A stretch of 48,925 nt of DNA from a virus (IMGVR_UViG_3300045988_151382), one strand, 5' to 3'; shown: positions 4,989 through 42,104, counted from the stretch's first letter. Notes: generated by a model from the letters alone, not told the origin. Translations and numbers: made by a program.

Positions 4989-5196
4989 TATTGCGTCTCC
5001 ACGGAGGAAAATTGTTTACTGATATTGGCATAACCGGAGCATCAGGAACTTTAAGAATAATCCCCGCAGAAAAAAGCACCGTAAAGCGGTGCTCAGTATT
5101 AGCATCAATAAGAAGATAAGACAGGTACTCATTACCATACAACTTTAAAGCGATACTATCCCATGAGTCCCCTTGAACCGTTCTATAATCATCCAA
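4978..5196 (-). CDS. Tail protein X-like with LysM-like motif
   Basis: 72 aa ORF, motif DSWDSIALKLYG resembles LysM; located just after tape measure gene. Confidence 0.5.
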   Translation of the reverse strand: MDDYRTVQGDSWDSIALKLYGNEYLSYLLIDANTEHRFTVLFSAGIILKVPDAPVMPISVNNFPPWRRNSVT

Positions 5197-18696: not shown

Positions 18697-19277
18697 CCAT
18701 TAGCAAGATACTGAACAAATCCCTCATGCGTTTCATGCGCGTCGTGGTACTGACGATAAACATCCAGCAACAATGCAATTTCCATATCCGTCGCGGGAAT
18801 ACGTTCTTTATCAATAGCCAGGTACTTAATTTGAACAACAGGGGAAGAATTATCGTCTTCTTCCTGCGGCTGTTCATCGCTTAACATTTCGTCAAGCTCT
18901 GCATCATTAAACCCAAGCAGATCAATATCAAAATCATCATCCATTAACTCTTTGACTTCTTCGGCCAGAAGCTGCATATCCCAGCCAGCATTTAAGGCCA
19001 GCTTGTTATCTGCAATCCTGTACGCCTTCTTCTGTTTTTCAGAAAGGTTACTCAACCGAATCGCCGGAACTTTATCCATTTCCAGAATTTCGGCTGCTGC
19101 AAGCCGACCATGCCCCGCAATCAGTTCATTCTTTTCATCGATCAGCACAGGATTAGTGAAACCGAACTCACGGATACTGTTCACCAACTGTTCAACCTGC
19201 TCATCTGAATGAGTCCGTGAATTTTTGGCGTATCTGAGCAGCTTACCGACTGGTAAATATTCGATTTTTAGAGCCAT
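18687..19277 (-). CDS. ParB-like nuclease domain protein
   Basis: 196 aa; motif NPVLIDEKNELIAGHGRLAAA characteristic of ParB/Srx N-terminal domain; paralog of 21944..22567. Confidence 0.7.
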   Translation of the reverse strand: MALKIEYLPVGKLLRYAKNSRTHSDEQVEQLVNSIREFGFTNPVLIDEKNELIAGHGRLAAAEILEMDKVPAIRLSNLSEKQKKAYRIADNKLALNAGWDMQLLAEEVKELMDDDFDIDLLGFNDAELDEMLSDEQPQEEDDNSSPVVQIKYLAIDKERIPATDMEIALLLDVYRQYHDAHETHEGFVQYLANGCK

Positions 19278-19834
19278 TTTTTAACCGCCATAACACAACA
19301 GGTTAAAGAAAACTGTTTAACTTATTGATACTAAAAGAGAAAAATGACGATCTTTTTACTCATAAAAAATCACACAAACCAGCATAATTATCTGATTTTA
19401 TTAAGTTTTTATAAGTAAAAAGGATCTTGCGATGGTGTTTTGGTTAAAAGATTGGATGTATTTACATGATTTATAACGATTTTTATCAGAACAACATCAC
19501 ATTGGTTAAAGATCTGCACGTATCTTGATGATCTAAAAGAAAATTTTCTACTTTCTTTTTACCAGCACAAATACAGCAAAAAATCACGTTTTCCCGATAT
19601 TTTTCAATGAGATGAGTAAATTTCTTTTACCGCAACTTTTAACCTAACTTTTTTCACGTTTAGCTAGCCGAACATCGGGGTTCGAATGACCCGCATCCAA
19701 CGCTTTTGGCCAGAAGGACCCAATTCTGCCGGACGATGAAACGATGCTCGTGCTCCCCCACAGACAGCCAGCGAGCGACGCTACAGAACACAGTGAATAC
19801 CCCCTGCATAACAACACCATCAACCACACGATGA

Positions 19835-20554
19835 TTAACGAGAGAACGTCTTAGAAAGGATGTCATCAATAGCCTTTGTGACTTCATCAGCAAACGCATC
19901 CTCACCAGCACGCAGCGCCACGCCATGCCAATCAAGACGCTGCGAATAGTTAGGTTGCTGGATGAACGTAAGGATCAACGTAGGACGCCGCCCAACGCGC
20001 TGCCAGACGCCTGGTTGAAGCGGGTTACTTGTACCAGGTCGAACAACAAAAAACTCCGTAGGCTTGCCCTGACGGCGATTTTGATGCGCATCTCGCTGAA
20101 CTCTTAGGCCAGATAAGACCTGCTGTAATTGCCCCCGCGAAATATTCCCGTATTTGTCCAGCTTTGCGCCGGGACCAGGAGCAAGCTGCCAGCCGTTAGG
20201 CAAATATCCACCAGCCCTTAGCGCCCCTTCTGAGCGTTTGTACTGTCGTTGGCCGCCTTCGATTTGCGGAGTCAACGTTACAGGGGCTGGCGTTCCACCC
20301 CATTCACGAGCATACACAATGGCTGTAGGATCACTCTTCTTTGCGGCTAAAACGTAAGTAGAGTTCTGAATCCACGGCGTGGGCCTGTCAAATACCCGAT
20401 TAATTTCATCCTTAATCGCAGCCTGAGAAGCCTTTGCCGTTCTGGTTGCTGTAAGCGCCATTGCGAACGGCAATTCGCGTTCTTCAATGCGCTGGAGTTG
20501 CCGTTGAATATCCTGAGAAGAAAAATCCATCTTTATCTCAATTCTGTCAGCCAC
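19835..20554 (-). CDS. Hypothetical protein
   Basis: 239 aa ORF between ParB-MTase fusion and a 550-bp non-coding region; no motif recognised. Confidence 0.4.
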   Translation of the reverse strand: MADRIEIKMDFSSQDIQRQLQRIEERELPFAMALTATRTAKASQAAIKDEINRVFDRPTPWIQNSTYVLAAKKSDPTAIVYAREWGGTPAPVTLTPQIEGGQRQYKRSEGALRAGGYLPNGWQLAPGPGAKLDKYGNISRGQLQQVLSGLRVQRDAHQNRRQGKPTEFFVVRPGTSNPLQPGVWQRVGRRPTLILTFIQQPNYSQRLDWHGVALRAGEDAFADEVTKAIDDILSKTFSR

Positions 20555-22567: not shown

Positions 22568-22689
22568 GCCGTTTATCCGCTAAAATCCCCTCGCTTGTGC
22601 AAGCAAGTGGGCCTCGGTTTGTATCCACGGCACCCTGTGGGTATGAATGACTGTCGTCAGGTCGCAACTGACGGCGGTCGCCCACCTTC

Positions 22690-22745
22690 CAGTAATAAAA
22701 AAGCCACCAGCATTAACTCCACAGCGAGCTGGAGTTAATGAGGCA
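22690..22745 (-). terminator. Stem-loop with downstream T-run on the minus strand (weak intrinsic terminator candidate)
   Basis: 11-bp perfect stem CATTAACTCCA/TGGAGTTAATG with 8-nt loop, then an 8-nt spacer before TTTTTTATT on the minus strand. Confidence 0.3.
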
Positions 22746-22801
22746 GCTTTGGTTTGCGCATTATCGCAGCCCCTGATTAGCACAAGAGCTGCTGTAATGC
22801 G

Positions 22802-23212
22802 TTACGCAGGGATCAAACAGATGTGGCCGTTATTTACCTCAATACGGGAATATTCCGGCTTACCATCCACGATTCCGGTAATGACAAGTTCGCCATCAGG
22901 CGACCATTCTTCTTTGTCGTCTTCAAGTACCGCGCCTTCTGGCAAATCAATACAGGCAAAAACAGGGCAGCCAGGATGACGTTTATCCTCCATCGCAATC
23001 AGCATCGACTCACCGAACCACTCTGTGGTAGCACGGCCATCAGCCGCCTGATAGTGAATCAGATACTGGTTTTCGCCATTTGCATACTGAGCACGGGCTT
23101 GAACTTCTCCCCACTCTTCACTGATACGCATTGTTACCAGTTGGGATAATTCAAACTTAAACGGAACAGACTCTGCACCAATGGCAATCGGTTTATCTTC
23201 TTTCTTTTCCAT
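22802..23212 (-). CDS. Hypothetical protein (start taken at internal Met with SD)
   Basis: ORF track 22802..23281; internal ATG at about 23212 preceded by AGGTGA; upstream part overlaps a terminator. Confidence 0.4.
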   Translation of the reverse strand: MEKKEDKPIAIGAESVPFKFELSQLVTMRISEEWGEVQARAQYANGENQYLIHYQAADGRATTEWFGESMLIAMEDKRHPGCPVFACIDLPEGAVLEDDKEEWSPDGELVITGIVDGKPEYSRIEVNNGHICLIPA

Positions 23213-23222
23213 AACATCACCT

Positions 23223-23253
23223 GAAAATAAAAAGCCCCGCGACACCGCGAGGC
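23223..23253 (-). terminator. Rho-independent terminator (minus strand)
   Basis: GC-rich stem GCCTCGCG/CGCGGGGC with 4-nt loop followed by TTTTTATTTT on the minus strand. Confidence 0.5.
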
Positions 23254-23261
23254 TGTAAGAG

Positions 23262-23414
23262 TTACTTTCGATATAAATCAAGGCGCATTTGCTCCCGCTT
23301 AAGCCGAAAAGCCCTCTGCGCCACTAAGATGCGCCACAGGACACCAGCGATAACCACCAGCGAGATACAAAAACACACGGCCACAACCATCAGAAAAATG
23401 CCAACACCATTCAT
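23262..23414 (-). CDS. Small membrane protein (about 50 aa), not in ORF track
   Basis: Hand translation MNGVGIFLMVVAVCFCISLVVIAGVLWRILVAQRAFRLKREQMRLDLYRK; ATG overlaps stop of upstream gene (ATGA). Confidence 0.35.
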   Translation of the reverse strand: MNGVGIFLMVVAVCFCISLVVIAGVLWRILVAQRAFRLKREQMRLDLYRK

Positions 23415-23623
23415 GAAACTATCCATTCTTCAATGAATATCTCCAGTAATGTCAAGAGATACGCCGTCCCCAGCGCGGTTCCTACCGATATAGCTAAGAC
23501 AAACCTCAAAGATAACGAGGTGTCTTTCGCTTTTCTCCAGACGTAAGCGCCAGCTAGAAATACCAACAAATCTCTTATTGGAAGCGGAAACCAGAACAAA
23601 TCACTCGGCATAAGCACGATCAT
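23411..23623 (-). CDS. Small membrane protein
   Basis: 70 aa ORF with two hydrophobic segments. Confidence 0.4.
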   Translation of the reverse strand: MIVLMPSDLFWFPLPIRDLLVFLAGAYVWRKAKDTSLSLRFVLAISVGTALGTAYLLTLLEIFIEEWIVS

Positions 23624-23900
23624 CTTCCGCTGCTGATTTACATGCCGCAGTTACTGATATATTGATAACCGGTGCGCTAATCGTGATGGACGACGCTGTC
23701 GGTTGACGCGATATAACTGAACGATGGCTATCAATGAAGTCCACAATCTCATTCAGGCACTCTTTAGCTGCCTCATCGTGACTTTTTCCGTATGCTTCAT
23801 GGAGGACTTTCATCCTCATCATTGCTCCGTCACATATAGTCGAAAGCGCGTAAAGCACATCACTAACCGCCATTTCTTTTTTGGTGCTTGTCGAAGGCAT
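23601..23900 (-). CDS. Hypothetical protein
   Basis: 99 aa ORF preceded by terminator and SD. Confidence 0.4.
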   Translation of the reverse strand: MPSTSTKKEMAVSDVLYALSTICDGAMMRMKVLHEAYGKSHDEAAKECLNEIVDFIDSHRSVISRQPTASSITISAPVINISVTAACKSAAEDDRAYAE

Positions 23901-23925
23901 CCCATGTTCTCCTTTGTCTGGATGT

Positions 23926-23951
23926 AAAAAAGCCCCGGCAATTGCCGAGGC
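23926..23951 (-). terminator. Rho-independent terminator (minus strand)
   Basis: Stem GCCTCGGC/GCCGGGGC with AATT loop followed by TTTTTT on the minus strand. Confidence 0.55.
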
Positions 23952-23974
23952 TCGTTGTTCGTTATCGTTACGGT

Positions 23975-24175
23975 TTAATGCTCGCGTCGTCCGGCGACAA
24001 CTTCGGATTTGTATTTCAGGTCGCCCAGCAAGAATTGCAGTTTAAGCATCTTTGCCGCCGTGTAGTTTCCTGATTCCACAACCTCTTTCATGAGGTCATA
24101 AACGGCCGCAACATCATCAGCCAGGAACTCTTTGCGTTGCTGCTCAGTCGCACGTTTGAAGGAAATACGCATCAC
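23975..24175 (-). CDS. Hypothetical protein
   Basis: 66 aa ORF overlapping upstream gene by 4 nt. Confidence 0.35.
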   Translation of the reverse strand: MMRISFKRATEQQRKEFLADDVAAVYDLMKEVVESGNYTAAKMLKLQFLLGDLKYKSEVVAGRREH

Positions 24176-24441
24176 TCATCATCTCCTGCCGCACATACAA
24201 CCTCACAAAAAACATCAGCGGAATGTTTCTTTTTGAATGAATGGCGCTCAAAACCGCACTCAATATCAGGCGCAAAAACATCCACCACATACGGTCTTTC
24301 AGAATGTTTGTTTTCCCAACGATAAACCGTAGTGACGTTGAAATGTTTTAACGCTTCACGGTACTCAACGCTGCCCGTCAGGTTTTTTGAGGTCAGGTAT
24401 TGCAGGAGGTTTTTTACTACTTCACGGTCTTGTACTTTCAT
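24172..24441 (-). CDS. Hypothetical protein, first gene after promoter cassette copy 1
   Basis: 89 aa ORF; ATG preceded by GGAG within conserved leader. Confidence 0.45.
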   Translation of the reverse strand: MKVQDREVVKNLLQYLTSKNLTGSVEYREALKHFNVTTVYRWENKHSERPYVVDVFAPDIECGFERHSFKKKHSADVFCEVVCAAGDDE

Positions 24442-24553
24442 CGGGTTATCTCCGGTTTAACCAGGGCGGGTATCGCTCGGTTTCGGGTATAACCATAGGA
24501 AATTTTTTCCCACCTGTAAAGCACTTTTTATATAAATATATAATTATATAATT
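24442..24553 (-). promoter_or_regulatory. Conserved promoter-plus-leader cassette, copy 1
   Basis: In gene orientation: AT-rich motif, TTTACA, 17-nt spacer, TATGGT, then a conserved ~50-nt leader ending GGAGATAACCCGATG; near-identical copies at 32944..33060 and 41984..42096. Confidence 0.55.
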
Positions 24554-25141
24554 CTATGCCACTTGCCAGAGAGCATCATGCAACTGGATACCTCCATTGC
24601 ACTGGTTGCCCCAGCCATGCCAACCATCAGGTAAATCACCGCGAGCAAACAGCTCAATACGAGGAACATCACCTAACAGCCTTACCAGCTTGTCACGAAC
24701 CACATCAGGCTTCCGAGAATGCTCCAGACGAGGCGATGTAAACGACTGAATGATCCCCGCATCAAGGCGGGTCGGCAATTTGCCTTTTACCGCAAACAAG
24801 CAATCTTCACTGTTTGCACGAGTCATATGCCCCATCCCCATCACCAGCTTATCTGGTTGTCGGCTACCACATTTGTTCCATGTGAAGCCCTTCATGGTCA
24901 TAAGCCTGAATCCCCATGCTTTCACCACCAGCAACGCTTCTTCTGGCTGAGTCGGAACCCACCACATGGCCAACAAACACGATTCAGGATTAGCAAGCTG
25001 CCAGACAGGAATACGAGCAATATCCTCAGCTTTCATCGTTGGATACTTAAAACCAGCTCCACGATTCCCATCCTTACACTTATCTTTGTATTCCCAGGGG
25101 GGATCTGCATAAATCAGATTAAACAATGCAATTGCCTCCAT
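24554..25141 (-). CDS. MT-A70 family DNA N6-adenine methyltransferase
   Basis: 195 aa; N-terminal YADPPWEY motif (DPPW catalytic motif of the MT-A70 family). Confidence 0.7.
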   Translation of the reverse strand: MEAIALFNLIYADPPWEYKDKCKDGNRGAGFKYPTMKAEDIARIPVWQLANPESCLLAMWWVPTQPEEALLVVKAWGFRLMTMKGFTWNKCGSRQPDKLVMGMGHMTRANSEDCLFAVKGKLPTRLDAGIIQSFTSPRLEHSRKPDVVRDKLVRLLGDVPRIELFARGDLPDGWHGWGNQCNGGIQLHDALWQVA

Positions 25142-25449
25142 GTTAGTTGTGCCTCCGGCGCTGATCTCCGGCAGTCATAACGCTGGCCAGCTCTACAGCA
25201 GACACAACGAAAAGGGCACTAACCAGACTGATTAATGCCCTTGCCTGTTGTGTGCCGGATATCGCCCGACAACGCTGTTTTGGTAACACGGCTACAGTTC
25301 CGTGCCGCTCCAGCTTTTACCCCTTTGCGGATAACAGGCCCTGCCTGTAACTTAGCCCCACGTTCGCCCGAAATGCGCACCAGGCACGCATAAAGATGAG
25401 CACGAAGGAAGTAACTCCACCGCGCTTATCTTTATGTGTGAGAGTGAAT

Positions 25450-25525
25450 TGGTGGCCCCTACCGGATTTGAACCGATGACCGTGCGATTATGAGTCGCCT
25501 GCTCTAACCACTGAGCTAAGGGGCC
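25450..25525 (-). tRNA. tRNA with CAU anticodon (Met or Ile2/lysidine type), CCA encoded
   Basis: Minus-strand sequence GGCCCCTTAGCTCAGTGGTTAGAGCAGGCGACTCATAATCGC...GGTTCAAATCC...AGGGGCCACCA; 7-bp acceptor stem, D-loop AGCTCAGTGGTTAGAGC, T-loop TTCAAAT. Confidence 0.8.
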
Positions 25526-25663
25526 ATATTTGATCTGTTTGTCTGGTGTGGCGCCGCGCACGAAAATCCCAGCCAATAAATTCAGGATTTTTGGGCGCGG
25601 CGGCATATCAGACAAACATGGTTGATGCGTGCGCCCATGAGAAAAGCGCATAGAATGTTGTAA

Positions 25664-25698
25664 CTATATATTTATATAATTATAGAAATATATATTAC
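25664..25698 (-). promoter_or_regulatory. AT-rich 17-bp-class motif upstream of the tRNA
   Basis: TATATATTTATATAATTATAGAAATATATAT; member of the dispersed ATTATAGATTTATATAA-like motif family. Confidence 0.4.
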
Positions 25699-25904
25699 TT
25701 TGGGCAGTTGATTTCCCATGCCCTGTTATGAGCCAGAATATCTTTCTTTGTCTGGCGGTCCATAACATTGATGTCGTGATCAGTCAGGTAGATGGGCTTT
25801 ACCCAATCACAGGCGGTATCAACCACCACCGGGACGCTTCCACGACTCCCGCAGCTCGCGATCAACATCGTCATCAGCCATATGGTTAACACTCTGCTGT
25901 ACAT
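25695..25904 (-). CDS. Outer-membrane spanin lipoprotein (Rz1-like)
   Basis: 69 aa; signal peptide ending in lipobox LIASC; overlaps the 3-prime end of the Rz-like gene. Confidence 0.6.
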   Translation of the reverse strand: MYSRVLTIWLMTMLIASCGSRGSVPVVVDTACDWVKPIYLTDHDINVMDRQTKKDILAHNRAWEINCPK

Positions 25905-26097
25905 TCCCCACCTCTTTTGTCACTTCTATACGCCGCTCCGCAGTGGCTTTTACAGCGGCTGCATTCTCATTAATGCGCTGCTTTTCAGCTTCATCTTCGG
26001 CCTTTTCTCGCCCCTTCATACGACCAAAACCAAACGCACCGAATGCAACCAATATAACGGTGCCGATAAATGACAAAACGGCTTTCAAACCAGTCAT
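25819..26097 (-). CDS. Inner-membrane spanin (Rz-like)
   Basis: 92 aa; N-terminal TM helix then charged coiled-coil region; directly downstream of endolysin. Confidence 0.6.
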   Translation of the reverse strand: MTGLKAVLSFIGTVILVAFGAFGFGRMKGREKAEDEAEKQRINENAAAVKATAERRIEVTKEVGNVQQSVNHMADDDVDRELRESWKRPGGG

Positions 26098-26636
26098 ACC
26101 ACCACTCGCTCTTTCATCCAGCCGTAGACAAACGACTCATTAGCCTCGCGCTTCTCCGCCAGCTCCAGATAGCGTTCGCCCTGCGTACAGTTCAGCGACG
26201 TCAGCATCACCCGTTCGCCGTCTTTTCCCCGATTCCCAAGATAAGCACGTAGCGCATTAATGGTACGTGGACCGATTCGTCCGTCTGCATCCAAATCGGG
26301 ATACAGCTTCCCGCGCAGGTTGAACACATTCAGCCAGCGTTGAAGCATTTTTGACGCCACTGTTGGCCCCATGTTCACCCCCGTGTCACACAGCTCTGCG
26401 GCAATATCAGAGGATAATGCGGCCACCTGATCAAAGCGTGGTCCGTACCAGTAATCAGCCTCAAGGATTTCCAGTGCCTGTTCGCGGGTTAAATCGCGCA
26501 TATCGCCACGGTATCCATGAGCACGGGCAGTGTTCTGAGTAATGCCCCACTTTGTTGGGCCTCCCTTGTCGTCAGGGTGATCCACATAGCCGCCCTCTTT
26601 TCCAAGAACGCTGTTAAAAATCTCATCTTTGGTCAT
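26094..26636 (-). CDS. Endolysin, GH108-like lysozyme with peptidoglycan-binding domain
   Basis: 180 aa; N-terminal LGKEGGYVDHPDDKGGPTKWGIT motif; lies between holin-like and spanin genes. Confidence 0.65.
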   Translation of the reverse strand: MTKDEIFNSVLGKEGGYVDHPDDKGGPTKWGITQNTARAHGYRGDMRDLTREQALEILEADYWYGPRFDQVAALSSDIAAELCDTGVNMGPTVASKMLQRWLNVFNLRGKLYPDLDADGRIGPRTINALRAYLGNRGKDGERVMLTSLNCTQGERYLELAEKREANESFVYGWMKERVVV

Positions 26637-26919
26637 GATTAAACCCTAATGCGTCAACTATCCGCGCCAGATTGCCCCTGAAATACAGAACAACGATGCA
26701 GATAATCAGATTTCCAATAACCACCAGCCAGTGGGATTCTTGATAAAGACCGAACACATAACGGAAGGGAACATTGGCGTATACAATGACGTAGATATAA
26801 GCCAGAAAGGAAACAAATGGACGATGCCTGGAGTCTTTCCGTCGATAAAGCATCAGCGCCATTACTATTACTGTGCAAAGCACCGCATTAATCAGTGCTG
26901 ACGGGTCACTGCTTACCAT
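26623..26919 (-). CDS. Small membrane protein of the lysis cassette (holin/antiholin candidate)
   Basis: ORF track 26623..26955; internal Met start; three hydrophobic segments. Confidence 0.4.
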   Translation of the reverse strand: MVSSDPSALINAVLCTVIVMALMLYRRKDSRHRPFVSFLAYIYVIVYANVPFRYVFGLYQESHWLVVIGNLIICIVVLYFRGNLARIVDALGFNHDQR

Positions 26920-27301
26920 TTGAACCCCCTCCACGTAAGCGGGAAAGCATTCCAAAGATGCTACCGAGATCCTGGCTGTTTACGAACGTGAGGATTTTAA
27001 TTGTCAATGCAGCCACAATAACCGCACCAAGTGCATCAAGAGGACGATCGTTGTAGCTGGTCCATTTGGCAAGAAATGAGCCAACTAACGGCGCTCCAAT
27101 CACTCCAACAATGAACGATGTAAAGAAATAGCCAATCAGCTTGAGACGGCTAATATTCACCGCTGTAGCAACATAGAAAACAGCGCCAGCAAATGCCCCG
27201 AATACAACGCCGTAATCAATACCAGTTGCAATACCAAAAACGCTGGCCCCCATCAGGCCACCAGCAGCAACGGCCGTACCGGAAATTGGTTCTGCTGACA
27301 T
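26906..27301 (-). CDS. Holin-like membrane protein
   Basis: 131 aa, glycine-rich multi-TM protein at head of lysis cassette, preceded by SD and terminator. Confidence 0.5.
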   Translation of the reverse strand: MSAEPISGTAVAAGGLMGASVFGIATGIDYGVVFGAFAGAVFYVATAVNISRLKLIGYFFTSFIVGVIGAPLVGSFLAKWTSYNDRPLDALGAVIVAALTIKILTFVNSQDLGSIFGMLSRLRGGGSNGKQ

Positions 27302-27314
27302 TGAAATCCTCGTT

Positions 27315-27345
27315 AAAAAAAAAGCCCCGCCGAAAAAGGCAGGGC
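27315..27345 (-). terminator. Rho-independent terminator immediately upstream of the lysis cassette (minus strand)
   Basis: 8-bp stem GCCCTGCC/GGCGGGGC followed by nine T on the minus strand, then SD GAGGA and holin ATG. Confidence 0.6.
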
Positions 27346-27491
27346 TTCATAAAGCAACAAATTACGCGGTAATCGCTTAACGCAGTTTTACTACGTTAAA
27401 TGAAACACTACACCCAGTTACCACCTAAAACAAGGTTTCTTCATAAAAAAACCTTCAAAATGTGGTTGATCGATCAATAAAAAAACAATAC

Positions 27492-27767
27492 TCACAGTAG
27501 TGCAGAAAAGAATAGCGGCTTAACTGCTTTCCTCACCTCACTAGCGTACATCCCCGCAGCTATCTCAGTTGTGAACAAACGCCCTCCAACTAGCCATGCA
27601 ACAGGTGCAGATGCCAGGGATGCCAGTGCAATTTCATCTGTAGCAAGCTCTCTTTCAAGATATTCACGAAATCCGGGGTTAATAGTTACCGTATCCAACA
27701 TTCTCTGGCGCGCTTCCTTACGTTCACGAATATGGGCAATCAATTGCTCTTTGGTAAAAGTAGCCAT
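27492..27767 (-). CDS. Small protein, member of 3-paralog family
   Basis: Starts MATFTKEQLIAHIRERKE at internal Met; paralogs at 27769..28182 and 28193..28456 share N-terminal motif and upstream leader. Confidence 0.45.
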   Translation of the reverse strand: MATFTKEQLIAHIRERKEARQRMLDTVTINPGFREYLERELATDEIALASLASAPVAWLVGGRLFTTEIAAGMYASEVRKAVKPLFFSALL

Positions 27768-27768
27768 A

Positions 27769-28182
27769 TCACTTCCCTTTCCCCTGAAGCATAGCGGCGC
27801 GGCAGGCGTTCCAGCCTGTAGCGTATGCAGCCGCTTTGCTGCTGCCTTCAACTGGCGCATCCTGCCAATACATTTCATCCGGCACTACCGGCGCTGGCAA
27901 GGCAGCGTGATAGTAGAGTGGCATAGTTTTGTACAGTGGTTCGCCAGGACTTCCGTCAACCTGATTCCATTCTTCAACCCAGGCATCAACAACCGCTTTG
28001 CTGGTTGATACATGTTCTTCTGAATCTACATTTTGTCCTGATATACAGAACATAACTGCCTCTGCTTCCAGCGATGCCAGAGCAATTTCATAAGCCCGAC
28101 GCTCAATATTGTCTCGGACGTCCAGGCTGCCTATGCGCTCTTTGATTTCTTTAATCAGTTCTTTGTCGGTAAAAGTAGTCAT
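27769..28182 (-). CDS. Small protein, member of 3-paralog family
   Basis: Starts MTTFTDKELIKEIKERIG. Confidence 0.45.
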   Translation of the reverse strand: MTTFTDKELIKEIKERIGSLDVRDNIERRAYEIALASLEAEAVMFCISGQNVDSEEHVSTSKAVVDAWVEEWNQVDGSPGEPLYKTMPLYYHAALPAPVVPDEMYWQDAPVEGSSKAAAYATGWNACRAAMLQGKGK

Positions 28183-28192
28183 GTGTTAGTCC

Positions 28193-28456
28193 TTATCCTG
28201 CTGTGCTTTCAACTGATGAGGGGAACAAAATCTTTTCATCAAACCCTGCATTCATATCATGGACAGCAACACACCAATCCATTGACGAACGATTATCAAG
28301 AGCCTCCATGATTTCATCCATGCGGCGCAGGTCATACAGGTAAATGCTTTTATCGCCAATGGTGTAAAAACCAATTTTTTTCGGTGATGGGCAGCGATCA
28401 AGAACGTCCTGTAATTCGTTCAACCATGCCCGTTCTTTTTTTGTTAAAGTTGCCAT
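28193..28456 (-). CDS. Small protein, member of 3-paralog family
   Basis: Starts MATLTKKERAWLNELQD at internal Met. Confidence 0.4.
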   Translation of the reverse strand: MATLTKKERAWLNELQDVLDRCPSPKKIGFYTIGDKSIYLYDLRRMDEIMEALDNRSSMDWCVAVHDMNAGFDEKILFPSSVESTAG

Positions 28457-28457
28457 A

Positions 28458-28952
28458 TCACTCTCCTTTGATGCGAATGCCAGCGGCGCGTGGCACATTA
28501 ACTTCCACGATGCGCACTGTTGGTTTGTACATCTCAATCTCTGTCAGCCAGTCAGCTCCTGTCATGCGCTTTTCCGCATCGCCATTAGTCCACTGAACCG
28601 GTACACCAATAGCCTTCATCGCGATTTCTATTTCCCCGGCAATGGCGCTTTTTCCGCAACCAGTAAAACCAGAAACAACGACAAGAACTTCACCTTTGGC
28701 TGGTTTTATTTCCCGTGCTTCCAGTTCTGCAATGCGCTTTTTGTCTGCTTCCCGTTCATCCAGTAGTGCCAGCACGGTTTCTGGTCCGGCCAGAAATTTG
28801 AAGGCGTTGAGCGCATCAATATCCACACCGTAATCTTTAAGTTCCTGTTCACTTAACAAATCATCATCAGCTGGCAACATTAACAGGCGTTCCATTGCTG
28901 GAATTGCACGTTCCGCCGCCTCACGCAGTGCCTGGTAATTAATTTCGCTCAT
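28458..28952 (-). CDS. Ea22-like lambdoid accessory protein
   Basis: N-terminal MSEINYQALREAAE motif recalled from lambdoid Ea22-like family; shares terminal blocks with the next two genes. Confidence 0.45.
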   Translation of the reverse strand: MSEINYQALREAAERAIPAMERLLMLPADDDLLSEQELKDYGVDIDALNAFKFLAGPETVLALLDEREADKKRIAELEAREIKPAKGEVLVVVSGFTGCGKSAIAGEIEIAMKAIGVPVQWTNGDAEKRMTGADWLTEIEMYKPTVRIVEVNVPRAAGIRIKGE

Positions 28953-29590
28953 TGGTTGCCTCCTTTGCGAAGCTGGGCAGCGAACCTATCAGCTGCATCC
29001 GCGCAAGCAGAAGCAACGGAATCAAAAAATGGATCATCTCCTGTATCGCGCATCGTCAAAGCGAATGCCTCCACCCCTTGTGCCTGTATTTCTACAAGGG
29101 ATGCCTTAGATGTACTGCTTTTCGCCTCGCCTAATTCGTTATGAGCGATGTTCGCTATACATGCGATGTCTATATCTGGATGATTAATTGGGCAATGGCT
29201 AAGAATTGCCTCAAGTGCTGCTTTTTTGCTTTGGCATTCCGCCACCAGCGCCCCGCAATTGCTTTCATATTCGGCAATACGCTGTTTAGCAGCCTCCAGC
29301 TCAACACGCAGCTTCTCAAGCGTTAGAGCCATCTCCATGTTCTCGTCCAGCAGTTCAATCACATCAGGATCGCTATCATCAACTACTGTTATGCGCGATT
29401 TTTTGTAATGCTCGTCAGCATAAGTTCGTCCAGTTTTGAAGCATCCGTCGTCCTCCATGCCGGAACAGGCATAAACGACATGTGATCCAGATATGCGCTG
29501 CATTGACATTTCCTCGCCACAAACAGAGCATTTAGGCGCTGGTTTCGGTGAAAAACGTTCACGTAACGTATGATAGTAAAGCTCGCTCAC
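28949..29590 (-). CDS. Ea22-like protein with Cys-rich zinc-ribbon-like segment
   Basis: 213 aa; CSVCGEE...YACSG..GC cysteines; C-terminal AAQLRKGGNQ shared with 29587..30396. Confidence 0.4.
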   Translation of the reverse strand: MSELYYHTLRERFSPKPAPKCSVCGEEMSMQRISGSHVVYACSGMEDDGCFKTGRTYADEHYKKSRITVVDDSDPDVIELLDENMEMALTLEKLRVELEAAKQRIAEYESNCGALVAECQSKKAALEAILSHCPINHPDIDIACIANIAHNELGEAKSSTSKASLVEIQAQGVEAFALTMRDTGDDPFFDSVASACADAADRFAAQLRKGGNQ

Positions 29591-30396
29591 TGGCTGCCTC
29601 CTTTGCGAAGCTGTTCAGCGATATCTTCGAGAACGCCATCAGAGAATGAGCGGTCAAAATCGCCTTCCGGCGCATTAGCCATAAACTCAGTAGAGGTAAG
29701 AATCATCCGGGCAATATCCGCGGCGTTCTTCGCAGTATCATCAATAAAACCAGCTTCCCAGGCAGCCAGCATTCTGTTCGCCACAAAGTAAGCTCCCTCC
29801 TTGCGTGCTTCAGTCTTCACTTCATCCAGGAAAGCATCGGTGGCTGGGGTTTCGACATTAGGTCGAAGCTCATAATCACAAACTCTTTCAATCCATGGTG
29901 ATACTCTGTCGCATTTCCTCTTCTTGCGTTCACCGACCTTGGTTGCCTGCTGAATAATTACCCCCCAGCAAATGCTTTCGACCTCTTCGCTCCATCCATC
30001 GCAAGCATCGCCTCTATAGTCGTCAATTGCAGCCTCAGCAGCAGCGATAGCCTCCTCAGCAGTTTTGTGACACTCGAAACTAAATTCAGAGCCATATGAG
30101 AAATACATAGCCCCGGCCTTAAGCCCCGCATTCTCCGCCACCAGCGCCGCGAGATTAGTCTCAAGCTCTGCAATTCGACACATAGCATCAATATTTGTGT
30201 CCTCCAGCCGCTTAATTTCATCCAGAAGCGCCAGCACAATATGTGGCGTTATCAAGGACTCAAATTCGGCAACAGCTTGCTCGCCTCGCTTGTAATTCTT
30301 AATCCCACCTAAATTTTTCGCGTTCTGTGCCGCCTCACGCAGTGCCTGGTAATTAATTTCGCTCACTGGTTGCCTCCTGAATACGCTTAAACTCAA
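29587..30396 (-). CDS. Ea22-like protein
   Basis: 269 aa; contains SEINYQALREAAQ and C-terminal EQLRKGGSQ. Confidence 0.45.
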   Translation of the reverse strand: MSLSVFRRQPVSEINYQALREAAQNAKNLGGIKNYKRGEQAVAEFESLITPHIVLALLDEIKRLEDTNIDAMCRIAELETNLAALVAENAGLKAGAMYFSYGSEFSFECHKTAEEAIAAAEAAIDDYRGDACDGWSEEVESICWGVIIQQATKVGERKKRKCDRVSPWIERVCDYELRPNVETPATDAFLDEVKTEARKEGAYFVANRMLAAWEAGFIDDTAKNAADIARMILTSTEFMANAPEGDFDRSFSDGVLEDIAEQLRKGGSQ

Positions 30397-31828: not shown

Positions 31829-31884
31829 TTATATAAATATATAATTCTATATACAGCGGGAGACATCCCGCCGTAGACTTACTG

Positions 31885-32943: not shown

Positions 32944-33060
32944 TTTATTCATCAGATTTCTCCGGTTTAACCAGGGCGGGTATCGCTCGGTTTTGGGTAT
33001 AACCTTAGGAAATTTTTTCCCACCTGTAAAGCACTTTTTATATAAATCTATAATTATATA
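32944..33060 (-). promoter_or_regulatory. Conserved promoter-plus-leader cassette, copy 2 (immediately downstream of Q-like gene)
   Basis: Same architecture and about 90 percent identity to copies at 24442..24553 and 41984..42096. Confidence 0.55.
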
Positions 33061-33122
33061 TTTATAGATTTTCCGATATTCCCGGTGCCTACAAATCACC
33101 AAAACAGCTCAAAATGACACTT

Positions 33123-33500
33123 TCATTCTCTTCTCTTTTTCAAGTAGTCGACAACATACGCCCTGGCTTTTGCCAGCTTCCGGCGATACTGTCTGAGACT
33201 AAGAGAAAGGGCGTGGGCTTTATCAATATGCGGTGCATTTATGTCGAGGCCCCGAATCTCCCACGCCCCGTATTCAATTCGGACAACCAGCGCCGCAGTC
33301 TCATCAACTACCGTGAGGGCCGTCACCGCTCCCTCGATACTGGTTTCCAGTGAGTCATTTGGTGCGCCGCCCCCTCCGGTAAACTGGCAACGCGTAACCA
33401 TCATCATTTCTAACATCGACGCGAAACCGCTACGGGCGTTGCAGCCATTGCGCACCCACAGCGCCCATAGCTCAAACAAGCTATCCAGATCGCGTCTCAC
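33123..33500 (-). CDS. Putative antitermination protein Q (82/QuuD-like family)
   Basis: 125 aa; N-terminal RRDLDSLFELWALW resembles the RD..LE.WGAW start recalled for 82-type Q; lies directly upstream of a promoter cassette. Confidence 0.4.
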   Translation of the reverse strand: MRRDLDSLFELWALWVRNGCNARSGFASMLEMMMVTRCQFTGGGGAPNDSLETSIEGAVTALTVVDETAALVVRIEYGAWEIRGLDINAPHIDKAHALSLSLRQYRRKLAKARAYVVDYLKKRRE

Positions 33501-36784: not shown

Positions 36785-36905
36785 GGCTAACGCCCGCTTA
36801 TATGATTATAGATTTATATAATTATATAAAACACTTTTCATCCGCCAAAAAGTTGGTTATGCTTACCTCATTCTATAAATATAGATTTATAGAATTATAT
36901 AATCA
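36785..36905 (+). promoter_or_regulatory. AT-rich repeat block upstream of the partition genes
   Basis: Two copies of the TATAGATTTATA(T/G)AATTATATAA-class motif. Confidence 0.5.
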
Positions 36906-36925
36906 AACACATGGAGTCTCGACAA

Positions 36926-37579
36926 ATGACTATATCTGTAGGTATTTTCAACGGAAAAGGCGGCGTAACCAAATCAACCATTGCTCGTGCTTTAGCAGTT
37001 GCTTATGCAAAGGCTGGCTGGAATGTATGCCTGATCGATATGGATGTGCTTAACGGAACGGTAACGCGTTGGGTACAACGCAGAATGGCCAACAATATCG
37101 AACCTGCAATCGCGGCGCAGCCGTGCGGCACGCCATCACAAGTCCAGAAAATCATCGAATCAGAAGTATACGACCTGGTTATCGTTGATGGCGGTGCCTA
37201 CGCATCTGAATCAGTACCGAAGCTCTCTGAATTTCTGGATATGGTTATTTTGCCAACCAGATTCTCTACCGATGACCTGGAAACCACCGTTAACACAGCT
37301 CACGGCATCGTTAAAAAGGGTGTACCAATCAAGAAAATTTGCATGGTGTTTTCCGGCGCGGCTGAAAACGAAGCTGACTATATTGAAGCCCAAGAGTACC
37401 TGGCTAATACGCCATACTTTGTTGTCGATAAGTACATTCCCCACAAGCCAGCTCTGAGCAAAGCTCAGGATAAAGGCTTAAGCCTCATTGAGTGCTCATA
37501 CGTTGCGCCACGCAAAAAAGCAGACGACGTTATTCAGGGGATTATCAACCAGCTTGAGGCTCTGACTACTGCCGCGTAA
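36926..37579 (+). CDS. ParA-like partition ATPase (short type)
   Basis: Deviant Walker A GKGGVTKST near the N-terminus when started at 36926 (ORF track starts 36911). Confidence 0.7.
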   Translation: MTISVGIFNGKGGVTKSTIARALAVAYAKAGWNVCLIDMDVLNGTVTRWVQRRMANNIEPAIAAQPCGTPSQVQKIIESEVYDLVIVDGGAYASESVPKLSEFLDMVILPTRFSTDDLETTVNTAHGIVKKGVPIKKICMVFSGAAENEADYIEAQEYLANTPYFVVDKYIPHKPALSKAQDKGLSLIECSYVAPRKKADDVIQGIINQLEALTTAA

Positions 37580-37622
37580 TATATAATTATAGTTTTATAG
37601 ATTTATATAAGAGAGGATACAC

Positions 37623-37871
37623 ATGGCCGCACCATCAAAACCACCAAAGAAGAACAGCAAAGGCGTACCGCCATCGATCGAACAACCGCAGGTTTTCGAC
37701 CCGACTGAAACGCCAGCCAGAACCAAATCAGGTGGGGCACAAATGGCGTTTAACGTCGACCCTGAATTTAAACGCGAGTACAAAACGTTCGCCAGCTCAA
37801 TGGATATGTCATTGAAAGAAGTGCTAACAAAATCTTTTGAGTTACTCAAGGCTCAATACAACCAGAAGTAA
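37623..37871 (+). CDS. ParG-like ribbon-helix-helix partition protein
   Basis: 82 aa; disordered basic N-terminus and C-terminal RHH-like segment; follows the ParA-like gene. Confidence 0.55.
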   Translation: MAAPSKPPKKNSKGVPPSIEQPQVFDPTETPARTKSGGAQMAFNVDPEFKREYKTFASSMDMSLKEVLTKSFELLKAQYNQK

Positions 37872-38093: not shown

Positions 38094-38115
38094 AAAAAAG
38101 GCCCCCGAAGGGGCC
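38094..38115 (-). terminator. Rho-independent terminator (minus strand)
   Basis: Stem GGCCCC/GGGGCC with 4-nt loop followed by TTTTTT on the minus strand, just downstream of small ORF 38122..38244. Confidence 0.55.
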
Positions 38116-38121
38116 TAATCG

Positions 38122-38244
38122 CTACTTGCTGCTAATGTTTATCGTCACATTCAGAGCGTTATCAGTAATCTTCCAACCCTCTCCATGTGGCGTAAACAAA
38201 GCTCCAGTAACAACGATAAAAATACACATACAGTATTTTTTCAT
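38122..38244 (-). CDS. Small hydrophobic peptide (about 40 aa)
   Basis: MKKYCMCIFIVVTGALFTPHGEGWKITDNALNVTINISSK from internal Met of ORF 38122..38304; own terminator. Confidence 0.3.
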   Translation of the reverse strand: MKKYCMCIFIVVTGALFTPHGEGWKITDNALNVTINISSK

Positions 38245-38559
38245 TGTATGGCCCTTACAGGCCGTTTCACGGCATCCCCACCGACGAAAACAACGCGAGA
38301 GCAAGCACGGCTGCTTGTGCTTGCATGTACGGCAACGGAGAATCCTCCCCTAAAGTCGGTGCCCGGGTGCGAATCGGCGGGAAGGTCCACAGGTATTTTA
38401 CGATTATTTTAAGATTAGTAATAGGAAAGAAATTAAACGAAAAAACTCGTTTATTTTCACAAAATCAGTAACCTACCCACAATCTGTGAGTTTGCAGGCA
38501 CAACAAGAACCACAATTTTTTGAAGCATAATAGTGGACTATTATTACCTTTTGGGTAAA

Positions 38560-38840
38560 ATTAACTTGCTGCTTGTGCTTGCGTGGTTGTTTATACAACA
38601 ACGTAATGCTGAAAGGACCGCGAATCCGATCAGCACGAAAGAACCGTCCTCAATAGGGCGGTTTTTTTGTTTCTGCCTACCAATAAACCCACGCTATGTG
38701 GTTGTCTCTGTTAAAATCCCGCCGTATTGACATGAATGCGCCATTGGTGGACACTTTCCGAGCCGTAGCAAAATCTACGGTCGGGATTGGAACCCCGTAG
38801 ACACAATGGCGCATACCGCGTTAGCGGTTTTTTTATGCGT
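38560..38840 (+). ncRNA. Candidate regulatory RNA region upstream of the antirepressor operon; two intrinsic terminators
   Basis: Terminators at about 38644..38668 (ACCGTCCT/AGGGCGGT stem then T7) and 38815..38834 (ACCGC/GCGGT stem then T7); no ORF; repeated GATTGGAACC element. Confidence 0.45.
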
Positions 38841-39000
38841 AAAGCACTGCTACACCCAAATTATGGTGGGGCGTGCGGGGGAGTCGTAAGACTCGCCGGT
38901 TCGTCATTGTGTCCGGTAGTTCCAACCCTGCACGTCTCACCACCCAATGATTGGAACCTGACGGTGGTGAGTATCCTTAACCTTTAAGGGAATCATCACA

Positions 39001-39192
39001 ATGACAAACCTACCCCATGACTATTACGTCAACCTCGTAAAGATCCTTCTCAAGAAAGCCTCATACGCCGATAAATTCCGCCTGGCTGAAATCATCGAGC
39101 GCGAAGCTATGCGCATCGCCAGCAACGATAACGCTGTTTCTGTCGCAAAAATCTCCCTCGTAACCAAAGTAGTTATGGGAGGTGCAAAATGA
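39001..39192 (+). CDS. Small protein translationally coupled to antirepressor
   Basis: 63 aa ORF whose stop overlaps the ant ATG (ATGA). Confidence 0.4.
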   Translation: MTNLPHDYYVNLVKILLKKASYADKFRLAEIIEREAMRIASNDNAVSVAKISLVTKVVMGGAK

Positions 39193-41602: not shown

Positions 41603-41983
41603 TTACTTAACGAGGAATAAAAATGGTTTATTGTTCGGCGGTGTAATCGGAGCTGGCTCGCTTTTGCTCATGCGATCAGTGTACCAGGCCAGCTCCTTGT
41701 CAAAGTAAGCCTGATTAAAATAGGCAATGAATGTAGTTTCAAATCCATAACGACCGCTAATACGCAGCATCTGATTGCCGTTCTCTGTTTCCAGGTATAC
41801 CTGGGCACGTTCCTGATTCTCCTTCAGCCAGGTTAAAGCCTCATCGCACGAGGACACACGATACTCATCATCGTAGCCGTCATCGATGCGGCTTGAAGAA
41901 GAACGGCAAATCACGCCAACAGAACCAGCCAGGATAGTTTGAATTTTAAGGAAAGCGTTTTTGCGGATTTTAATCATGCTCAT
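41603..41983 (-). CDS. Hypothetical protein, first gene after promoter cassette copy 3
   Basis: 126 aa ORF. Confidence 0.4.
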   Translation of the reverse strand: MSMIKIRKNAFLKIQTILAGSVGVICRSSSSRIDDGYDDEYRVSSCDEALTWLKENQERAQVYLETENGNQMLRISGRYGFETTFIAYFNQAYFDKELAWYTDRMSKSEPAPITPPNNKPFLFLVK

Positions 41984-42096
41984 CGGGTTATCTCCGGTTT
42001 AACCAGGGCGGGTATCGCTCGGTTTCGGGCATAACACTAGGAAATATTTTCCCACCTGTAAAGCGCTTTTTATATAAATCTATAATTATATAATTC
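41984..42096 (-). promoter_or_regulatory. Conserved promoter-plus-leader cassette, copy 3
   Basis: Same architecture as the copies at 24442..24553 and 32944..33060. Confidence 0.55.
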
Positions 42097-42104
42097 CATG
42101 AGCA

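Follow-up and report, generated by a model that had tools for sequence, protein, structure and literature searches.

In the lambdoid phages lambda, 82 and 21, the late regulatory cassette comprises the Q gene, the promoter PR' with a Q-binding element, a sigma-dependent pause element, the terminator tR' and the lysis and structural genes. The Q-type gene closes the delayed-early operon ahead of a sigma-70 promoter, the holin gene is immediately preceded by an intrinsic terminator, and a single long co-directional late operon contains internal terminators that need read-through. The Q-binding elements (QBEs) of lambda Q and Q21 sit in the promoter spacer, and that of Q21 is a TGAGCA direct repeat (PMC6606751). 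In Q21 (6P18, 6P19, 6JNX; PF06530), a WxxLELWxxW-type helix at the N-terminus precedes a sigma-region-4-like helix-turn-helix (HTH) domain. BrrG, from the gene transfer agent (GTA) of Bartonella, was recognised as Q21-like by structure only; it works as a processive antiterminator on a remote locus (bioRxiv 10.1101/2024.11.20.624540). The window analysed here (the whole stretch of 48,925 nucleotides) is a complete circular E. coli phage-plasmid of 49 kb, a myovirus that carries repA, parA and a toxin-antitoxin pair. The lytic genes are arranged on the minus strand in a single co-directional array of ~38 kb, and the annotated genes between 22690 and 27345 are all on the same strand. The gene order is lambda-like, with resolvase-type genes followed by a Q-like gene and then a promoter, and the early operon is proposed to start at ~35.5 kb and to include the Ref and DUF1064 genes, with the Q-like gene as its last member. 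Unlike in the lambdoid cassettes, however, 5.7 kb and ~16 genes separate the Q-like gene from the pre-holin terminator, the promoter behind the Q-like gene occurs three times in the genome, five strong terminators are present as against one dominant tR', and the host element, a plasmid-prophage, has a contractile tail. With moderate confidence, we consider the terminator series and the Q-like protein to constitute a lambda-type late-gene switch, an unannotated form of the textbook system. The coordinates of the features are given in Table 1.

Table 1. Terminators, promoter cassettes and associated features of the phage-plasmid.
Feature	Coordinates	Strand	Properties
T1 intrinsic terminator	27312–27348	minus	11-bp GC-rich stem and U9; −20.5 kcal/mol, z −6.0
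Tt intrinsic terminator	25202–25242 (hairpin 25242–25212)	minus	−19.4 kcal/mol, z −4.8
T2 intrinsic terminator	23924–23953	minus	−18.8 kcal/mol, z −5.0
T3 intrinsic terminator	23224–23254	minus	−16.6 kcal/mol, z −5.0
T4 intrinsic terminator	22691–22750 (fold 22750–22700)	minus	−27.5 kcal/mol, z −4.5
Weaker intrinsic terminator	5066–5094	minus	−12.2 kcal/mol, z −3.6
Conserved non-coding island	27380–27433	minus	TTGTTT-17-TAGTGT, weak promoter-like; invariant TAACGT; hairpin ACGUAG-N5-CUGCGU
Q-like gene	33123–33500	minus	125 aa; last gene of early operon
Cassette A	32950–33071	minus	TTTACA-17-TAAGGT at 33030–33002; starts 52 nt after Q-like stop
Cassette B	24439–24558	minus	TTTACA-17-TATGGT at 24520–24492; promoter scan match
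Cassette C	41981–42100	minus	promoter at 42062–34; third copy

The sequence-only reading of this DNA had described four minus-strand stem-loop and T-run structures, and all four (T1 to T4) were found to be canonical intrinsic terminators with ΔG between −16.6 and −27.5 kcal/mol. T1 to T4 have GC-rich hairpins with stems of 9–20 bp and a U-tract of 5–9 U at 0–1 nt from the stem; they have no upstream A-tract and are therefore unidirectional. T4, which had been taken for the weaker one, is instead the strongest because its hairpin of −27.5 kcal/mol, long and interrupted, is directly followed by a U-run, UUUUUUAUUA (U6AUUA). A consensus scan of the 20–36 kb region returned 28 terminator-like sites against 15.0 ± 3.9 in shuffles, and its top three (27348–27321, 23953–23930 and 23254–23233) are all on the minus strand. 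When a stringent criterion (compact hairpin of ΔG ≤ −14 plus T-run) was applied to the entire 49-kb minus strand, 6 matches were obtained, 5 of which fall within the 4.8 kb from 22600 to 27400, where 200 dinucleotide shuffles gave a mean of 0.155 and a maximum of 2. RNA folding placed the stability of the hairpins above chance (z −4.5 to −6.0). The series is longer than had been described, as the fifth member, Tt (25242–25212), had been missed. The only other clean terminator in the late operon is the weaker one, which follows the tape-measure gene within the tail-gene block.

The conservation of the terminators was also monitored in relatives. In T1, 100% of the cells were paired across four lineages, with compensatory double changes in two pairs. 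T4 was found in four lineages with 91.6% of the cells paired and double changes in four pairs, and only 3 of 500 shuffles reached as much. T2 was retained in L028 and L029, where its position is unchanged and only the loop differs, and it is uninformative on compensatory pairing because it is invariant; the Tt sequence is identical in close relatives. T3 is not conserved, being missing from the close relatives L023 and L026, and comes and goes with a variable accessory module, which among the terminators is true for the T3 module only. Furthermore, a compact terminator directly 5' of the holin gene was present in at least six lineages (L011, L012, L014, L015, L018/L002 and L030), and the sequences of these pre-holin terminators are mutually unrelated. 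These results together confirmed T1, Tt, T2, T3 and T4 as genuine intrinsic terminators, at which transcript release is predicted.

Going downstream from the early promoter region, T1 is the first strong terminator to be met. Tt is located ahead of the MT-A70 methylase gene, ~210 nt past the tRNA(CAU) gene, T2 follows two small genes and T3 follows three small membrane-protein genes. A start codon had been described 20–60 nt after each structure, which was essentially borne out at T1 (19 nt from the stem end to the holin ATG at 27301), T2 (29 nt to the ATG at 23900) and T3 (20 nt to the ATG at 23212 of a 136-aa gene) but not at T4, where the ATG (22567) of the ParB-like gene heading the packaging and structural block is 132 nt away and, instead of the Shine-Dalgarno sequence (SD) described there, a conserved structured element of 125 nt was found. 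As the next start codons are 19–29 nt away, the genes after T1–T3 are reachable by read-through only. The terminators had been placed inside an operon of late genes; the co-directional array stood, whereas the genes 3' of T2 and T3 encode small proteins without assigned function and are not established late genes. In HK97 and HK022, the late operons reportedly carry inserted units of promoter, gene and terminator, termed morons. The present locus is like them in that its lysis and packaging modules are separated by small accessory genes, each with a terminator behind it, and in the variability of the T3 module, but between T2 or T3 and the next genes there is neither a promoter nor room for one, and therefore the downstream units cannot be expressed autonomously. 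Moron units at T2 and T3 were thus rejected, the next ATG being only 20–29 nt away.

The same spacing bears on a different account, which we regard as unlikely, namely that the terminators insulate modules by marking the 3' ends of separate units (early operon, lysis-tRNA, methylase and accessory cassettes). The late genes would then be turned on by activation, with the Q-like protein as a sigma-region-4-like HTH activator or repressor acting on either the cassette dyad or the AT arrays described below, the structural genes having their own activator-dependent promoter downstream of T4 and the lysis genes being served by partial leak through T1. The behaviour of T3 as part of a mobile module fits such insulation, and so do the conserved element after T4 and an AT-rich non-coding gap of 560 nt (19276–19835) ahead of the third ParB/terminase block. 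The gap could conceal an independent late promoter, and activator-dependent promoters invisible to the consensus scan could lie in the gap or in the post-T4 element. However, the holin gene and the genes downstream of T2 and T3 have no promoter of their own because T1–T3 are only 19–29 nt from the start codons, and the consensus scan found no sigma-70-like promoter on the minus strand from 24492 to 18931. In addition, the stretch from the lysis genes to the ParB-like gene has no cassette in the L020/L030 lineage, so that three serial terminators separate the post-Q-like cassette from the packaging genes.

The Q-like protein combines an LELWAxW motif at the N-terminus with a sigma-region-4-like HTH at the C-terminus, an organization like that of Q21, but it is 125 aa long against 162 aa and the "nozzle" residues of Q21 are not mappable onto it. 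It belongs to the family phrog_5285, for which an exhaustive search gave ~130 cluster representatives and which has no Pfam domain and is annotated as "hypothetical protein" in RefSeq. The protein was below every Pfam threshold, without a match to any Pfam Q model, and no PHROG function is assigned; PF06530 was touched weakly by 4 of the 76 family members. The family profile matched Q21 (6JNX/6P18) with an E-value of 3e-5, the next match being at 0.37, and the HHalign probability of the family against Q21 was 93.7%. The six best Foldseek matches in the PDB were all Q21, but with E-values of 0.2–0.5 and a TM-score of only 0.44–0.52; in the structure model a conserved GGGG loop and residues 21–46 are of low confidence. 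The N-terminal motif matched Q21 specifically and not sigma factors, which argues against a mere activator as required by module insulation. The Q-like gene named in the sequence-only reading is thus probably a real but distant homologue of phage 21 Q, while no Pfam Q model matches the protein itself, and its antiterminator function is predicted. BrrG is comparable in that its likeness to Q21 was found only by remote or structural similarity and in that it acts at a promoter away from its own gene, as is predicted for the Q-like protein. It differs in belonging to an alphaproteobacterial GTA and in that just one target locus, bearing a weak terminator, is described for it, and its function is experimental where that of the Q-like protein is predicted (bioRxiv 10.1101/2024.11.20.624540).

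A sigma-70 promoter cassette is present three times in the genome. Cassette A, next to the Q-like gene, consists of an 8-bp AT-repeat array, a promoter with a spacer dyad, a leader hairpin (32992–32969), an SD and the ATG of a DUF3560 gene. Cassette B is located between the methylase gene and T2–T4, 0.54 kb upstream of T2; the succession of promoter, terminator and gene resembles the lambdoid arrangement. Cassette C comes just after a terminator (42132–42110) and drives a 126-aa gene and an HTH gene in the plasmid-maintenance region. Across lineages the −35, the 17-nt spacer and the TAnnnT −10 are all kept, and the spacer dyad, an inverted repeat, co-varies, which makes it a candidate Q-binding element; it would also fit a dimeric regulator, and the 8-bp arrays are positioned upstream of the −35 at a distance that suits a class-I activator, both of which favour activation. 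Neither a Q21-type direct-repeat binding element (8-bp-spaced) nor a clear −10-like sigma-dependent pause element was found, a difference from the lambdoid cassettes; the hexamer aligned to the pause position is NANNNT in most relatives and GATACC in all three window copies. The antitermination layout proposed earlier was upheld in part, as it recurs in diverged relatives with a promoter after the Q-like gene, but the distance from the Q-like gene to T1 and the missing Q21-type direct repeat speak against it. The same 8-bp arrays flank parA, beside a ribbon-helix-helix-like protein, and for this reason the partition protein may bind the late promoters. It is conceivable, at rather low probability, that the thrice-repeated cassette is a dispersed loading platform at which one divergent Q21-like protein launches termination-resistant polymerase at three loci, and that the partition protein couples plasmid maintenance to lytic silencing.

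The cassette leader hairpin (~+3 to +26) showed compensatory changes in 4 of its 7 pairs over 10 cassette copies, with the variants AACC/GGUU, GACC/GGUC and GGCC/GGCC, and is invariant among the three copies of the window. Such conservation would be expected if this stem-loop modified RNA polymerase by itself or with another protein, as in antitermination of the nut or put type, the Q-like protein not being the effector. We hold this to be very improbable, as the hairpin is small (7 pairs, consensus −7.3 kcal/mol) and might just as well stabilise the 5' end of the mRNA or, lying beside the SD, act in translation, and no cassette lies within 5 kb upstream of the pre-holin terminator. An N/nut or put system was rejected, with no N-like protein annotated and no Rfam family matched; what was found is an unclassified leader hairpin.

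For Q-type antitermination, the DNA target of the Q-like protein, its loading, the read-through and the timing are inferred as follows. After derepression, the host sigma-70 RNA polymerase would transcribe the early operon from ~35.5 kb to the Q-like gene, and unmodified polymerase would pass the accessory genes and halt at T1, with the holin gene beginning 19 nt further on. The Q-like protein, through its sigma-region-4-like DNA-binding domain, would bind a phage promoter and load onto RNA polymerase, the candidate sites being the co-varying spacer dyad of cassettes A, B and C and the conserved island upstream of T1. Loaded polymerase would ignore the terminator hairpins, as structurally shown for Q21, reading in order through T1 (lysis), Tt (methylase), T2, T3, T4 (ParB-like, terminase, head and tail genes) and the 5.09-kb terminator. 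Remote homology, the inverted-repeat spacer, GATACC, the 5.7 kb to T1, the unconserved T3 and possible hidden promoters were counted against this scheme. If confirmed, it would give a function to the phrog_5285 family, would imply that the widespread 47–50-kb phage-plasmids of E. coli, Klebsiella and Yersinia use a lambda-type Q switch, and would define the switch controlling their lysis and particle production; the induction logic would be of practical value because these phage-plasmids are common in clinical E. coli. The system is most likely the known lambda-type switch and not a novel kind, and the conceptual gain over the textbook mechanism would be little, save for the triplicated cassette if it is truly a multi-site loading system.

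Upstream of T1, an island of ~115 nt is conserved in four lineages between non-homologous flanking genes. Its promoter-like site agrees with 6 of 12 consensus positions and is followed by TAACGT, which may be considered for the role of the −10-like pause element. The island and its stable 5' hairpin would suit a reading in which T1 mainly ends a small regulatory RNA (cf. lambda 6S RNA and StxS), the other terminators being ordinary operon ends and read-through being secondary, which we judge improbable. A full-length match to GcvB (RF00022) that includes a GU-rich seed-like stretch agrees with such an RNA, but its score of 35.4 bits (E 3e-5) is below the gathering score of 42 and no match was found in L011, L012 or L020; the identity as GcvB was rejected on these grounds. 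The promoter is also weak, and a small RNA would be compatible with Q-type antitermination and silent on T2–T4. The island may be a PR'-like start of a short RNA ending at T1. In the PR'-tR' unit of Stx phages, the precedent for such an RNA (StxS; PMC7547250), a conserved non-coding hairpin stretch likewise ends at a terminator before the late genes, whereas here the putative promoter is weak and away from the Q-like gene, and there is no sequence similarity to StxS. Because the conserved hairpin stretch ends at T1, lysogens could contain a short terminated RNA.

The window begins and ends with the same 89 nt, an exact terminal redundancy, and thus represents a closed circle of ~48.8 kb. The circle was opened within a gene of the tail-fibre region, and the late operon therefore wraps across coordinate 1. 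The E. coli plasmid pMS21199B is 99% identical to the window, and its RefSeq annotation contains repA, a ParA protein, a RelE/ParE toxin pair and an XRE-type repressor, together with a full myovirus head, sheath, tube and baseplate gene set. Similarly, the Yersinia phages vB_YpM_39/41/44 align to ~84% of the searched 22-28 kb stretch with ~98% identity. The combination of plasmid and myovirus genes in pMS21199B and the alignment to the Yersinia phages identified the element as a phage-plasmid; a literature search found no study on this phage-plasmid group. All the lytic genes lie on the minus strand and start at the divergent repressor/early-promoter region at ~35.5 kb, in the order of early genes (Ref nuclease, DUF1064 and the Q-like gene), about 16 accessory genes, lysis genes (two holins, a GH108 endolysin and spanins), a tRNA(CAU), an MT-A70 methylase, six small genes and a packaging/structural block in which three ParB-like genes lead to terminase, head and tail genes. 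The tRNA is embedded in the late operon with the spanin genes on one side and the methylase on the other, and has its own terminator ~210 nt downstream; it was assigned as tRNA-Met with anticodon CAT by ARAGORN and as tRNA-Ile in RefSeq, the latter implying lysidine modification.

The sequence-only reading had placed four minus-strand terminators (T1 to T4) directly before late genes, and a consensus scan together with RNA folding located all four stem-loops where it had put them. T1, T2 and T3 were the top three terminator-like sites within 20-36 kb in the consensus scan, and their folds had z-scores of -5 to -6 with a U-run directly after each. T4, which had been described as weaker, proved more stable than any other site; it is an interrupted hairpin of 20 pairs followed by UUUUUUAUUA, and was missed by the consensus scan only because its loop exceeds the length allowed. 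In addition, a fifth terminator (Tt) was found on the downstream side of the tRNA and a weaker sixth past the tape-measure gene. When the entire minus strand was scanned stringently (compact hairpin with dG <= -14 kcal/mol plus a T-run), six matches were obtained, five of them within 22600-27400, and 200 dinucleotide-preserving shuffles of this interval gave a mean of 0.155 and a maximum of 2. The folding z-scores and the shuffle test together ruled out a chance origin. No site has an upstream A-tract, and so the terminators act on minus-strand transcripts only. The distance to the next ATG is 19-29 nt for T1 to T3, with the SD in between, and 132 nt for T4, which corrects the spacing of 20-60 nt proposed earlier. 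Classical morons were rejected because there is no promoter space after T2 and T3 and variable presence is confined to the T3 module. A stem GCCTCG...CGGGGC with a conserved U-G pair is common to many terminators of this phage family, occurring in T2 and T3 and at differing positions in the related lineages L011, L015, L018 and L021, which suggests from sequence that terminator modules may have spread through recombination.

Positions of the features in the window
Feature	Position	Strand	Detail
Identical ends	1-89; 48837-48925
Q-like gene	33123-33500	minus	125 aa
T1	27348-27321	minus	-20.5 kcal/mol; stem end to next ATG 19 nt
T2	23953-23930	minus	-18.8 kcal/mol; 29 nt
T3	23254-23233	minus	-16.6 kcal/mol; 20 nt
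T4	22750-22700	minus	-27.5 kcal/mol
Tt	25242-25212	minus	-19.4 kcal/mol
Sixth terminator	5094-5074	minus
Shared stem	23229-23254; 23927-23952
tRNA	25450-25525	minus
Cassette A	33071-32950	minus	starts 52 nt downstream of Q-like stop codon
Cassette B	24558-24438	minus	between methylase gene and T2
Cassette C	42100-41980	minus	past toxin-antitoxin pair and terminator
Island promoter-like sequence	27433-27405		TTGTTT-17-TAGTGT
GcvB match	27473-27316	minus
Element after T4	22695-22570	minus	~125 nt, T4 to ParB-like ATG
Hairpin in this element	22679-22649		12-bp inverted repeat
AT-rich gap	19276-19835	minus	560 nt, non-coding, 37% GC
TTATAKAW arrays around parA	36806-36829; 36871-36902; 37578-37604
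Other TTATAKAW arrays	31829-31852; 25664-25695
parA	36911-37579	plus
Ribbon-helix-helix-like protein gene	37623-37871	plus	82 aa
isrK	38762-38834	plus
C4 antisense RNA	38859-38947	plus	P1/P7 immI type
ryfA	38094-38390	minus
Antirepressor-like gene	39189-40457	plus	422 aa
Accessory-gene 5' repeats	28915-28964, 29553-29602, 30329-30378; 27738-27801 vs 28153-28182 and 28439-28490

The short distance to the start codon, SD included, leaves no room for a promoter before the genes that follow T1, T2 and T3, and thus the holin and endolysin can logically be expressed only by transcription through T1. A consensus promoter scan found no minus-strand promoter between cassette B (promoter at 24520-24492), one of three copies of a promoter cassette, and position 18931. 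In the related L020/L030 lineage, the most informative case, the stretch from the lysis genes to the ParB-like gene lacks a promoter cassette, and three serial terminators (the pre-holin one, a second and the T4 homologue) stand between the packaging genes and everything upstream. For the packaging block to be expressed, T2-T4 very probably have to be transcribed through, with one main caveat: the AT-rich gap could hold a promoter invisible to the consensus scan. This gap is followed by the third ParB/Srx gene and the terminase gene, and contains several GATC sites, TTTAACC/GTTAACC repeats (at least 10 in L030), as well as a tRNA-T-arm-like hairpin (GCGGGTCATTCGAACCCCG); the GenBank records of the Yersinia phages begin close to it. 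Its sequence makes it a candidate for a pac site or an origin, and a late promoter is possibly hidden there.

The element between T4 and the ParB-like ATG is conserved far better than the flanking genes in six lineages. It contains the invariant GGTGGGCG and AACCGAGGCCCACTTGC and a hairpin that holds 5 of the 6 compensatory pairs of the predicted structure, and in two lineages it is present without the upstream terminator. Possible roles are a structured 5' UTR or a DNA site that serves the ParB-like/terminase module. Its GGGCGACC resembles a lambda-like cos site, but the AT-rich gap looks the likelier packaging site.

The claim that a Q-like gene is present was partly supported by sensitive comparisons that agreed with one another, and the protein itself had no Pfam match. 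Its PHROG family carries no known function and a single-sequence PDB search returned no match; thus the Q antiterminator of phage 21 (Q21) was reached only by profile and structure methods. An exhaustive profile search gave 130 cluster representatives of 54-181 aa, except for one weak 2,131-aa match. A profile built from 76 representatives recovered two deposited Q21 sequences at E values of 3.3e-5 and 3.6e-5, with the next at 0.37, and HHalign of this profile against the Q21 N-terminal segment gave 93.7% probability. Furthermore, the six best Foldseek PDB matches of the AlphaFold model (pLDDT 77.5) were all Q21 entries, with weak statistics (E 0.24-0.56, TM 0.42-0.52). Q21 has a sigma-region-4-like fold with the N-terminal helix packed against it (bioRxiv 10.1101/651190; PMC6606751). 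Among the 76 relatives, 4 touched PF06530 weakly and 5 touched ECF-sigma models. We conclude from sequence profiles and the model that the Q-like protein is probably a remote member of the Q21 lineage, for which an RNA-exit-channel 'nozzle' is hypothetical. A rival explanation, in which an HTH activator works together with insulating terminators, is unlikely in our view.

The relatives were retrieved through the Q-like and ParB-like proteins, with Q-like identities from 99% to 34%; their diversity was taken from IMG/VR because a genome-contig scan with the Q-like protein gave a single locus. In T1, 10/10 pairs were kept in all four alignable lineages (window, L011, L012 and L020), two of them changed on both sides (CG to UA, CG to GC), and the paired fraction fell to 26-69% in slid controls. 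In T4, 91.6% of cells were paired with double changes at four pairs, a level reached by 3 of 500 shuffles. A compact terminator lies immediately 5' of the holin gene in L011, L012, L014, L015, L018/L002 and L030 with unrelated stem sequences, and ~430 nt upstream of it in L017. The arrangement of the pre-holin terminator is conserved and its sequence is not. T2 and Tt were unchanged among close relatives, and T2 was retained in L028 and L029. T3 was absent from L023 and L026, where the surrounding small-gene module is deleted or replaced, and it is thus part of a mobile accessory module.

The promoter cassette is a ~120-nt element found in three near-identical copies preceding three unrelated genes. 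In each copy, an array of 8-bp AT-rich units (TTATAKAW) is followed by TTTACA, a 17-nt spacer, TAAGGT, TATGGT or TAGTGT, and a leader nearly identical among the three copies, and then by an SD and ATG. The three -10 variants differ solely where the hexamer tolerates change, and diverged lineages retain the -35, the 17-nt spacer and the TAnnnT geometry despite sequence change; the cassette was therefore taken as a real sigma-70 promoter. A dyad in the spacer co-varies between lineages (GGAAA-N3-TTTCC in the window, AGGTC-N5-GACCT in L020, AGGAC-N5-GTCCT in L015). Lambda Q and Q21 have their QBEs in the PR' spacer (PMC6606751), and by position the dyad is therefore a candidate site for the Q-like protein, although it is an inverted repeat whereas the Q21 QBE is an 8-bp-spaced direct repeat. 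A hexamer aligned at ~+12 to +17, the SDPE position, reads NANNNT in most relatives and GATACC in the window. The leader stem-loop at ~+3 to +26 also co-varies (AACC/GGUU, GACC/GGUC, GGCC/GGCC), with double changes at 4/7 pairs and the outer stem unbroken in 10/10 copies. Antitermination through an RNA element, for which this leader hairpin would be the candidate, appears very improbable to us. The cI-like repressor was rejected as a regulator of the cassettes, since its operator-like palindromes (ACCACAAATCGTGG type, at 35.5 and 36.4 kb) bear no relation to the cassette dyad.

Upstream of T1, a ~115-nt island is conserved in four lineages although the flanking genes are non-homologous, and similarity in other phages was found only in three Yersinia phages of the same family. 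The island contains a weak promoter-like sequence, a stable hairpin and an invariant TAACGT (a TAnnnT hexamer) at ~+1. By analogy to lambda 6S RNA or StxS (PMC7547250), a short RNA of ~85 nt ending at T1 is conceivable. That T1 serves mainly as an sRNA terminator, which is compatible with Q-like-dependent antitermination, is considered quite improbable. A full-length Rfam match to GcvB, also ending at T1, was sub-threshold (35.4 bits against a gathering score of 42; E 3e-5 in a 5.2-kb search) and includes a GU-rich stretch resembling the GcvB R1 seed; it was not recovered in the relatives sharing the island, and on both grounds a GcvB-like sRNA is no more than a side remark.

Q-like-dependent antitermination of the late genes is regarded, with moderate confidence, as the most likely mechanism. 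Early transcription from ~35.5 kb would pass the Q-like gene and halt at T1, the first strong terminator on its path. Polymerase would then be loaded with the Q-like protein at one or several phage promoters, and in this state would ignore T1, Tt, T2, T3, T4 and the 5.09-kb terminator, allowing expression of the lysis, packaging, head and tail genes. BrrG, a Q21-like protein recognisable by structure only, acts remote from its own gene (bioRxiv 10.1101/2024.11.20.624540) and is a precedent for a distant-acting Q21-like protein. By analogy, the system may work like the lambdoid Q switch, sharing with it the position of the Q-like gene, the promoter behind this gene and the pre-holin terminator. 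Departures from the textbook arrangement are the 5.7-kb gap separating the Q-like gene from the pre-holin terminator, five strong serial terminators, a late-type promoter cassette in three copies, and a plasmid-prophage setting with a contractile tail. The practical value would be that an unannotated protein family gains a function and that a common clinical E. coli phage-plasmid group gains a testable induction model.

The TTATAKAW arrays also flank parA, which is followed by the gene of a protein with a ribbon-helix-helix-like C-terminus, and occur after the spanin genes and before the MarR-like gene. Each lineage has its own array unit (GATATAAA, AAAGAWTT, AAATAATT) at equivalent places, which suggests that a lineage-specific DNA-binding protein may act at the partition and lytic loci. 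Gathering-level Rfam matches were obtained for isrK, C4 antisense RNA and ryfA. The isrK and C4 matches lie directly 5' of a 63-aa ORF and the antirepressor-like gene, and so the phage-plasmid apparently has a second, P1-like immunity region; in L020, the isrK/C4 pair is located ~1.3 kb upstream of the pre-holin terminator. Base composition gave no foreign-DNA signature in the accessory stretch. Short repeats (<=98% identical) at the 5' ends of neighbouring accessory genes (Ead/Ea22-like, phrog_5117-type) look like recombination boundaries between gene cassettes.
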